Positions 1,774 through 2,791 of a stretch of 4,902 bases of DNA are shown in pieces. Source of the stretch: a virus (Duplodnaviria > Heunggongvirae > Uroviricota > Caudoviricetes); IMG/VR virus record IMGVR_UViG_3300029102_000236, one strand, 5' to 3'. Positions within the stretch are counted from its first letter, which is position 1. Every line of letters starts with the position of its first letter. The notes beneath the pieces were generated by a model. The model saw only the letters and a program-made list of their open reading frames with translations. It was not told the origin of the DNA and did not search any database. Made by a program: the position numbers and the translations under genes.

Positions 1774-2058
1774 TTATTCAGTGCCGATATTTACCTTTAT
1801 CGCGTATACCTTTACCGGTTTATCACCGAAGTGCGGATGTGTGATTGTCTTCACTTCATATCCGTCATACGGAACATCAACTCTGCGGCTGGAATCGTCG
1901 CGCTTCGGATATCCCTTTGTGATAATCAGGCGGTCATGCTTACGGTTAACGAGGCGCTTTTTCCAGTAGTCATTACACAGGCGATACTCTTCCGTTTTCT
2001 CTCCGCGAATCATGGCATCGAAGTATTCACCTTTAACGGCAAGTTGCAGGTTAGCCAC
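1774..2058 (-). CDS. ASCH/PUA-like small beta-barrel protein, 94 aa, GTG start
   Basis: The ORF is open to 2142, but the GTG at 2058-2056 is preceded by AAGGAG (plus coords 2065-2070) at 6-nt spacing and gives a minimal overlap with the upstream gene. N-terminus (V/M)ANLQLAVKGEYFDAMIRGEKTEEYRL matches the ASCH-type signature (K-x-E-Y-F-x-A-I-x-x-G-x-K-T-x-E-x-R) as I recall it. Overlaps the stop region of the upstream MazG-like gene by 8 nt. Confidence 0.6.
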   Translation of the reverse strand: MANLQLAVKGEYFDAMIRGEKTEEYRLCNDYWKKRLVNRKHDRLIITKGYPKRDDSSRRVDVPYDGYEVKTITHPHFGDKPVKVYAIKVNIGTE

Positions 2059-2791
2059 GGTTAACTCCTTGCTGTGTGGCGTCGAGTAATAAATCCCACA
2101 ACCGCTGAGAGCAATTTCCGCATGTACAGCGTTGACCCACAACGTTTATCGCGTTGCTGATTTCCGGCGTTACCTGTTTAGGAACCATAACCCAACCATC
2201 CGGAGTTACCGGAAGCGAGAACGGCAGCACATCTCTGTGAACAAGTTTTTGCTGTGACAGGTTATCCAGAACTTTCTGTACTGCTGCATCACCGAATACA
2301 CCAAGCGCATCTGCCATAACTCCTACAACCTGATAAGCCTCAGCGCATACCGTGGATAAACCATCCGGAATTACCGGAGAGTTGCCGGGTTCTTTAATGT
2401 GCAAGCGAGGCTCACCATCTTTTGGCTCAGGCCACTGGCGCTCCATGTTGATCTTCAATTTATCTTCCATAGCAACGGTAATTTCAGCATCGCTGATGCC
2501 AGCACGGCGCTGTGCATCCCACAACAGAAACTGCATATCAGCCCACTCGCTAAGATCGTCTGGTTCGGCTGCGGCTTCCAGTGCCTCTTTTGAGAGGTGT
2601 TTCAGTGGACCAATGGGGCCAACGCAGCCAAATGTGGAGTCAGACCATTTGGCATGCTCGTGGCGAATCTGTTCGCGTTCCAGTGATGCCAGTGCAATTC
2701 GTGCTAGTTCCATTTGTTCGCCACGAGTAAGCCCGTTTTCAAGCGGATTTTTAATGAACAATTCAATACGTTCTTTGGTAATAGTGGTCAT
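2051..2791 (-). CDS. Modular protein with a MazG/HisE-like NTP pyrophosphohydrolase domain (DUF550-like), 246 aa
   Basis: ATG at 2791-2789 overlaps the TGA of the upstream gene (ATGA). The central region KEALEAAAEPDDLSEWADMQFLLWDAQRRAGISDAEITVAMEDKLKINMERQ resembles the all-alpha MazG helix pair (acidic E-x-x-E helix, then D-x-x-L-W-x-L...G-I-x...KL-x-KN-x-R). It is followed by the linker GNSPVIPDG and a C-terminal module containing C-x-C-x2-C (RCTCGNC). The N-terminal approx 45 aa are paralogous to the ORF at 3550-3804. Confidence 0.7.
   Translation of the reverse strand: MTTITKERIELFIKNPLENGLTRGEQMELARIALASLEREQIRHEHAKWSDSTFGCVGPIGPLKHLSKEALEAAAEPDDLSEWADMQFLLWDAQRRAGISDAEITVAMEDKLKINMERQWPEPKDGEPRLHIKEPGNSPVIPDGLSTVCAEAYQVVGVMADALGVFGDAAVQKVLDNLSQQKLVHRDVLPFSLPVTPDGWVMVPKQVTPEISNAINVVGQRCTCGNCSQRLWDLLLDATQQGVNRG
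2367..2384. repeat. Dispersed 18-mer ggaattaccggagagttg, copy 1 (encodes the NSPVIP linker of the MazG-like protein)
   Basis: Exact 18/18 match to 3354-3371. Both copies encode N-S-P-V-I-P in the reading frame of their respective genes. Confidence 0.9.

Follow-up and report, generated by a model that had tools for sequence, protein, structure and literature searches.

We analysed a 4,902-nucleotide stretch of viral DNA (IMG/VR record IMGVR_UViG_3300029102_000236, hereafter the window) in which two overlapping open reading frames (ORFs) on the minus strand encode a 246-amino-acid (aa) EaA-type mosaic protein with a DUF550 domain (2051-2791) and a 94-aa ASCH/PUA-like protein (1774-2058). Over positions 1-4809 the window matches Escherichia phage ev017 (Jouyvirus) and PhiR57_1 with 100% identity, and prophages with the same identity are present in 87 complete E. 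coli genomes, that of ATCC 25922 among them. In a phage-21-like lambdoid prophage of E. coli, the window corresponds to the int–xis–"exo-xis/ea" region, a pL-transcribed, non-essential stretch that ev017 carries between attP/int and exo-bet-gam; the genes there are arranged as int, xis, DUF4222, ASCH, DUF550, further genes, Ea22 and TraR, followed by exo/bet/gam. Both ORFs are real genes. The 246-aa protein, identical to ev017 gp35, has more than 8000 homologues, and the ASCH-like gene has 642 clusters of homologues, with 737 representatives at 50% identity. Strong PHROGs family matches were obtained for both proteins, all of them labelled "unknown function", while no NCBIfam model matched either protein and phmmer returned no significant match for either against the PDB. 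RefSeq labels are already in place, namely DUF550 / dATP-dGTP pyrophosphohydrolase domain-containing protein for the first and "ASCH domain-containing protein" for the second, and our literature search returned no functional study of either gene and no functional data for any EaA.

The initial annotation, made from the sequence, had read the 246-aa product as a MazG-like nucleoside triphosphate (NTP) pyrophosphohydrolase on the strength of a MazG/HisE-like helix pair. The helix-pair peptide (SEWADMQFLLWDAQRRAGISDAEITVAMEDKLKINMERQ) is present at residues 81-119 of the minus-strand ORF 2791..2051, and it lies within a MazG-superfamily domain that is more precisely of the DUF550/PF04447, MazZ type. 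Pfam PF04447 covers residues 42-137 (2381..2668, minus strand) with 141.8 bits against a cut-off of 23 (E=8.2e-42, profile positions 1-96 of 97), and this all-alpha NTP pyrophosphohydrolase domain is also supported by alignment and by a profile match to the MazZ structure 7ODY, described below. Two other profiles, canonical MazG (PF03819) and the DUF5664 family (PF18909, dGTP_diPhyd_N), gave no match at E<=0.1, and the tie to them is one of superfamily membership only.

We then aligned seven diverse DUF550 members from Enterobacteria, Klebsiella, Mycobacterium, Gordonia, Pseudomonas and Acinetobacter phages, including the characterised enzyme of phage SH-Ab 15497, and found 13 columns invariant in all seven (E69, E72, D79, E82, D85, L89, D92, G98, A107, K111, N115, R118 and W120 in the numbering of the window protein). 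The acidic residues predicted to bind metal (E69, E72, E82 and D85) are thus retained in all seven. A structurally characterised relative is MazZ of the Z-genome cyanophage S-2L, a (d)GTP-specific diphosphohydrolase of MazG-HisE fold (PMC8342488), and a profile of the seven domains matched its sequence (7ODY) over essentially the whole length (E=2.3e-13). The correspondence extends to residues whose roles are established in MazZ (PMC8342488), each with an identical counterpart: the metal ligands E35/E38/E50/D53 align with E69/E72/E82/D85, the transition-state residue R83 with R118, the pocket residues K76/N80/W85/W15 with K111/N115/W120/W49, and D60, which contacts the guanine 2-amino group, with D92. 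The residue mapping and the 7ODY profile match therefore indicate that the MazG-like call was right and can be narrowed to the MazZ type of NTP pyrophosphohydrolase, and the pocket appears guanine-adapted. Differences from MazZ are nonetheless evident, since the window domain belongs to a canonical-DNA lambdoid phage with no purZ or datZ neighbours, forms part of a mosaic protein with additional modules at both ends, and carries S50 and F54 where MazZ has the base-proximal I16 and N20.

The second characterised relative, the DUF5664-DUF550 fusion of SH-Ab 15497, acts on dGTP and dATP (PMC12884076). Its PF04447 domain shares 34% identity with the window domain over 71 aa (E=3e-6) and retains all of the invariant residues, whereas its N-terminal PF18909 (DUF5664) domain is absent from the window protein. 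The loci differ as well, SH-Ab 15497 having the order PurZ, DUF5664-DUF550, HD hydrolase, with the enzyme beside PurZ and DatZ. This enzyme (locus L097, 32865-34022) is the source of the PF04447 family name, and it matches the PF04447 model weakly (33 bits, E=5e-8). Arthrobacter phage Wayne has a stand-alone DUF5664 protein that is active as a dNTP pyrophosphohydrolase on its own (PMC12884076). The PF04447 name consequently rests on an ambiguous assignment plus MazZ, because the SH-Ab enzyme is both a weak match and the carrier of a DUF5664 domain of the active type.

The guanine-adapted appearance of the pocket also bears on a different substrate class. The DUF550 domain could hydrolyse alarmones, as E. 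coli MazG and Atd1 do, depleting (p)ppGpp rather than dNTPs and so acting against stringent-response or toxin-mediated abortive infection. The conserved guanine-specific pocket residues D92 and W49 would suit such a role, Atd1 provides a precedent as a phage MazG-like protein (10.1101/2022.06.09.495361), and the gene lies in an early, non-essential region reported to influence lysis-lysogeny and stress-related phage behaviour (PMC10834534). However, Atd1 is MazG-like by description and the window protein does not match PF03819 at the threshold given above, assays of the characterised DUF550/MazZ enzymes used (d)NTPs, and the nucleotide is buried in MazZ with little obvious room for a 3'-diphosphate. 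We therefore regard alarmone hydrolysis in place of dNTP hydrolysis as unlikely.

Around the DUF550 domain, the 246-aa protein is assembled from modules that also occur in other combinations. Residues 1-38 (MTTITKERIELFIKNPLENGLTRGEQMELARIALASLE; 2678..2791, minus strand) form an N-terminal module that alignments place both in P22 EaA and in proteins without DUF550. Beyond the DUF550 domain, linker 1 (GNSPVIPDG, residues 136-144; 2360..2386) leads into a middle helical module (residues 145-193; 2213..2359) found also in DUF551-only proteins, and linker 2 (PVTPDGW, residues 194-200; 2192..2212), whose P194-W200 columns are nearly invariant, leads into a C-terminal module (residues 201-246; 2054..2191) that is delimited by alignments, has no Pfam match and carries the motif C222-x-C224-xx-C227. 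The NSPVIPDG linker and C-x-C-x2-C motif described in the initial annotation are thus present as reported. Most relatives have a DUF551 domain in place of the residues 201-246 module, which elsewhere is fused to Ea22-like N-termini, follows DUF550 directly or occurs in stand-alone proteins of ~100 aa. DUF550 is likewise found in several settings, as the core of P22 EaA and of the "EaA-like" proteins of Klebsiella weberviruses and as a stand-alone protein of ~105 aa in mycobacteriophages. The EaA proteins of P22 and BTP1 occupy the same genomic region, begin with the same 38-aa N-terminus, have DUF550 domains 78-80% identical to that of the window protein and follow the same linker logic (NSPVIPG). 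In contrast to the window protein, P22 EaA has extra inserts, a DUF551 C-terminus and no ASCH neighbour, whereas BTP1 EaA ends in another C-terminal module and does precede ASCH.

Module boundaries coincide with the GNSPV(I/T)PDG(W) linkers, as seen from alignment breakpoints, and the DNA encoding these linkers is itself repeated at the boundaries: three direct copies of repeat family D2, to which the DNA of both linkers belongs, are present in the window (2197-2219, 2362-2384 and 3349-3371). A second linker type, P(V/S)PVVPE(E/G), is encoded by a DNA repeat at 3541-3564 and 3946-3969. The linker repeats sit exactly where modules are swapped among EaA-, Ea22- and DUF551-type proteins, and they have the look of recombination joints through which modules are shuffled. 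Earlier work has described the mosaicism of exo-xis genes and DUF551 as a portable domain, fused to the pyrophosphohydrolase among other cases (PMC10834534).

Such extreme shuffling with Ea22-like and DUF551 segments would also be compatible with a non-enzymatic protein, in which an EaA-type developmental regulator or adaptor resembling Ea22 uses DUF550 as an oligomerisation or binding scaffold. Ea22, encoded in the exo-xis region as well, forms tetramers, promotes lysogeny and has C-terminal domains that can be swapped (PMC10834534); MazZ is a tetramer too. However, the metal-binding and transition-state residues are fully conserved across very distant phages, which points to retained catalysis, and we consider a purely structural role for DUF550 rather improbable.

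The second gene begins MANLQLAVKGEYFDAMIRGEKTEEYR... and ends at 1774. In the fold search its 94-aa product came out as an ASCH/PUA-like beta-barrel. Its ASCH octapeptide, G19-E-K21-T-E-E24-Y-R26 (GxKxxExR; 1981..2004, minus strand), is conserved and stands in the same register as residues 19-26 of E. coli YqfB: 25 close homologues show no change at G19, K21, E24 or R26, and 50 representatives with 40-76% identity all keep K21, with conservation of 90% or more at G19, E24 and R26. The GxKxxExR motif was reportedly described by Iyer and colleagues in 2006. It appears under the name "conservative octapeptide" in work on YqfB-type N4-acylcytidine amidohydrolases, whose catalytic set comprises Lys21, the nucleophile Thr24, Arg26 and Glu74 (PMC9599836). 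K21 and R26 are present in the 94-aa protein and position 24 is Glu, and we therefore ruled out a YqfB-type amidohydrolase, because the nucleophilic Thr is replaced.

Besides YqfB, a N4-acetylcytidine amidohydrolase, the ASCH comparators are E. faecalis 3IUW, P. horikoshii PH0355 (2Z0T) and Z. mobilis ZmASCH, a single-stranded RNA ribonuclease; the window protein is shorter than the last (94 versus about 143 aa). Its basic isoelectric point (pI 9.35) would fit binding of a nucleic acid or nucleotide. A search of PDB sequences with the ASCH-like family profile returned only chance ribosomal matches. Longer proteins that hold the ASCH-like domain matched only Ead_Ea22 or nothing in a Pfam scan, which offered no clue to function, and are probably read-through or mosaic artefacts. 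The 3' end of the gene varies among relatives: the TAA at 1774-1776 that ends the gene in the window is a sense codon in phage 21 and ev207, whose ASCH protein is 14-16 residues longer (108-110 aa) and overlaps the start of the DUF4222 gene (L002, 5732-6058; L003, 5726-6058). In HK022 (NC_002166.1, 22711-22992) and several records of Shiga toxin (Stx) phages an intact ASCH-like gene with 85-88% protein identity is present with no annotated feature.

The junction between the two genes is compact. The TAA stop of the 246-aa ORF (2053-2051) lies inside the ASCH ORF, whose GTG start is at 2058-2056, producing an 8-nucleotide stop/start overlap (GTGGCTAA; 2051..2058, minus strand). A Shine-Dalgarno (SD) sequence, AAGGAG (2065..2070, minus strand), is located within the last codons of the upstream gene, 6 nucleotides before the GTG. 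The stop position, GTG start and AAGGAG given in the initial annotation are all confirmed. The GTG start is supported by the PHROG 625 profile (residues 1-93 of 98), by the RefSeq annotation of ev017 and by a break in homology to phage 21 at 2057/2058, and we rejected in its favour the TTG start at 2142 that the ORF list had given (122 aa).

The initial annotation had taken this arrangement as translational coupling of two products that may act together. We found, however, that the same overlap and ribosome binding site (RBS) stand behind many unrelated upstream genes. Our sample comprised 93 ASCH loci, made up of the 80 viral contigs closest to the query and 13 species-representative genomes. 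The junction (...aGGAGgttaaccGTGgctaa) with its 8-nucleotide overlap occurred in 49 of these behind differing upstream genes, and in another 37 an ATG start overlapped the upstream stop by one base. Unrelated proteins upstream of ASCH end in ...(Q)EVNRG or ...QGVNRG (2051-2075 in the window; about 3985-4008 in loci L017-L096). These proteins share their ...EVNRG or ...GVNRG endings because the final six codons of the upstream gene contain the ASCH SD and GTG, so that the apparent protein "motif" is the imprint of its neighbour's translation-initiation signal. The same junction recurs whatever the upstream gene, and the SD and start therefore belong to the ASCH cassette; the tight overlap is generic operon packing and indicates no functional link.

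We next asked how often the two genes occur together. DUF550 was present within 4 kb upstream of ASCH in only five of the 93 loci by both tblastn and hidden Markov model (HMM) searches, four of these being copies of this prophage and the fifth having an intervening gene; tblastn found the N-terminal module in 19. TraR/DksA stood directly upstream in 13 loci, phage 21 and ev207 among the examples, and in the remaining loci the upstream gene was one of many different mosaic proteins. Conversely, among 79 DUF550 loci with downstream sequence, ASCH occurred anywhere in six and was immediately adjacent in four, or in eight when scored by the C-terminal tail. Across 5426 complete E. coli genomes, ASCH DNA was found in 1465 (about 27%), DUF550 DNA in 500 (about 9%) and the joined pair in 93. 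Distributions in the phage collection also differ, DUF550 being found mainly in Klebsiella (365) and Mycobacterium (41) phages and ASCH mainly in Salmonella, Escherichia and Stx phages; P22, with an EaA that lacks an ASCH neighbour, and Webervirus are counter-examples to pairing. Adjacency of DUF550 and ASCH is thus not maintained across elements as it would be for a conserved functional module, and these data show that the two genes are independent. As a separate observation, DUF551 (PF04448) formed the C-terminus of nine of ten sampled upstream proteins by Pfam (loci L026, L028, L029, L032, L033, L054, L056, L067 and L104) and was detected by a crude HMM in 29 of the 49 loci with the 8-nucleotide overlap. 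We set aside a specific DUF551-ASCH association, since no other C-terminal module is as common as DUF551 in these mosaic proteins.

These counts bear on the model originally proposed for the locus, in which a translationally coupled MazG-like and ASCH module edits nucleotide pools or removes a modified or signalling nucleotide, for example as counter-defence. In its favour are the 8-nucleotide overlap and strong RBS, the nucleotide-related character of both folds, the adjacency of the pair in Salmonella phage BTP1 as well, and the existence of combined PUA-like and MazG-like proteins in host defence systems (10.64898/2026.01.15.699771). Opposing it are the rarity of adjacency (4-5 of 93 ASCH loci, 4-8 of 79 DUF550 loci, and 93 of the 1465 ASCH-bearing and of the 500 DUF550-bearing E. 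coli genomes), the recurrence of the junction after TraR, DUF551 and many other genes, and the discordant taxonomic distributions in phages. PADLOC, furthermore, returned no match for any of the seven window proteins. We consider this model very improbable: the conserved pairing on which the initial annotation had staked it fails in the locus counts, and the counter-defence role is speculation.

The defence systems in question are variants of the anti-phage system PUA-Cal-HAD, in rare members of which PUA, MazG and HAD proteins are combined (10.64898/2026.01.15.699771), and the window shares with them a PUA-superfamily protein beside a MazG-like nucleotide phosphoesterase. In contrast to the window genes, that system is a host defence with a HAD partner and a PUA domain sensing m6-dAMP, whereas the genes here are phage-borne. 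The resemblance would be only a lead, because the window has no HAD gene, no PADLOC match and no conserved pairing.

Taken together, these results make it probable that the locus holds two accessory genes that were inherited independently and brought side by side by modular shuffling, at the distal end of the pL-transcribed exo-xis region, and that the DUF550 domain is catalytically competent. The first gene (2051-2791) combines the 38-aa N-terminal module and the DUF550/MazZ-type domain with two exchangeable C-terminal modules by way of NSPV(I/T)PDG(W) linkers. Its DUF550 domain would be active, with divalent metal ions held by E69/E72/E82/D85 as in S-2L MazZ, and would remove pyrophosphate from a guanine nucleotide 5'-triphosphate to yield the monophosphate. 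The most likely substrate would be (d)GTP, dATP or pppGpp being possible too if the SH-Ab enzyme and the MazG-like Atd1 (10.1101/2022.06.09.495361) are taken as a guide, and the activity may adjust or clean up nucleotide or alarmone pools at an early stage of infection or induction. The second gene (1774-2058) encodes a minimal basic ASCH/PUA-like beta-barrel whose GxKxxExR pocket may bind RNA or a (modified) nucleotide, and its cassette supplies the SD and start codon that come to lie within the final six codons of whichever gene recombines upstream of it.

Several observations weigh against this reading. The substrate specificity of the DUF550 domain would be an extrapolation from relatives with 26-35% identity that act in Z-genome synthesis, and neither purZ nor datZ was found in the window or in the 16.8 kb of ev017 around it, so a Z-genome role does not apply here. 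The SH-Ab 15497 reference is moreover a fusion in which the DUF5664 type is itself active, such that either domain may account for its activity. Structure prediction was also uninformative for this domain: an AlphaFold2 model of the full 246-aa protein from a 33-row mosaic alignment had a pLDDT of 47 and a pTM of 0.31, with the DUF550 region below 50. In the same model pLDDT reached ~70 only in the C-terminal module (residues 201-246). The MazG-HisE fold assigned to the DUF550 domain consequently comes from its homology to 7ODY and should be read as predicted.

For the 94-aa protein, Pfam ASCH (PF04266), which the initial annotation had also named, scored 15.5 bits against a cut-off of 21.2 (E=0.029) and covered the N-terminal 43 residues only. 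Among the 50 family representatives, four reached ASCH at E<=0.01 and two matched DUF3850, and hhalign of the ASCH-like profile against YqfB gave E=0.16 over the octapeptide only. The ASCH/PUA-like call itself stands, supported by fold and octapeptide with a sub-threshold Pfam score. Finally, in BTP1 an EaA of different architecture precedes ASCH, so that the pair does recur at low frequency, which leaves room for occasional functional synergy; this adjacency shows what assortment can occasionally produce.

A broader reading would cast the exo-xis region as a shuffling arsenal of small host-manipulating or counter-defence effectors, in which the MazZ-like domain destroys a guanine signal or toxic nucleotide ((p)ppGpp or a defence-made analogue), the ASCH protein sequesters or processes a modified nucleotide or RNA trigger (such as the signals sensed by PUA-domain defence systems), and the linkers serve as dedicated recombination joints from which new combinations of effectors arise. 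We consider this scenario improbable and offer it as speculation; independent inheritance with a competent DUF550 domain is the explanation that we carry forward.

All ORFs of the window mentioned here are on the minus strand. The ORF list, Pfam and PHROGs identify an integrase (1-1143), an excisionase (1133-1369) and a DUF4222 protein (1509-1748) downstream of the ASCH gene, and an Ead/Ea22-like protein (3806-4570) and a TraR/DksA zinc-finger protein (4567-4788) upstream of the 246-aa ORF. Three small or medium ORFs of the ORF list lie between the 246-aa ORF and the Ead/Ea22-like gene. An 83-aa Cys-rich ORF (CDCRQC...C; 2788-3039, minus strand; PHROG 926, function unknown) is annotated in ev017 by RefSeq and overlaps the start of the 246-aa gene with its stop. 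A scan for internal promoters and terminators found none that was convincing between the window genes. The only sizeable non-coding gap of the operon, between the DUF4222 gene and xis, contains an AT-rich inverted repeat with a 16-bp stem (1463-1501) that scores as terminator-like on the plus strand. In NZ_CP135957.1, NZ_CP178656.1, NZ_AP022533.1 and NZ_CP134715.1, otherwise identical prophages have their window match split in two by the insertion sequences (IS) IS2, ISEc52 or IS100. These splits suggest insertional inactivation of the prophage in some E. coli copies.

Both genes belong to known families, are already annotated and are very common lambdoid accessory genes in E. coli prophages. 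The stop/start overlap and strong RBS at this locus counsel caution, in that such features in an early operon of a phage should not be taken as evidence that two products work as a pair. Enzymes of Z-genome phages are the source of the Pfam name "dATP/dGTP pyrophosphohydrolase", which may mislead the annotation of lambdoid prophages. A MazZ-like active site, including the Asp that contacts guanine N2, in an EaA-type protein of a canonical-DNA phage yields a concrete prediction that would be cheap to test, namely that this protein is a guanine-nucleotide pyrophosphohydrolase.

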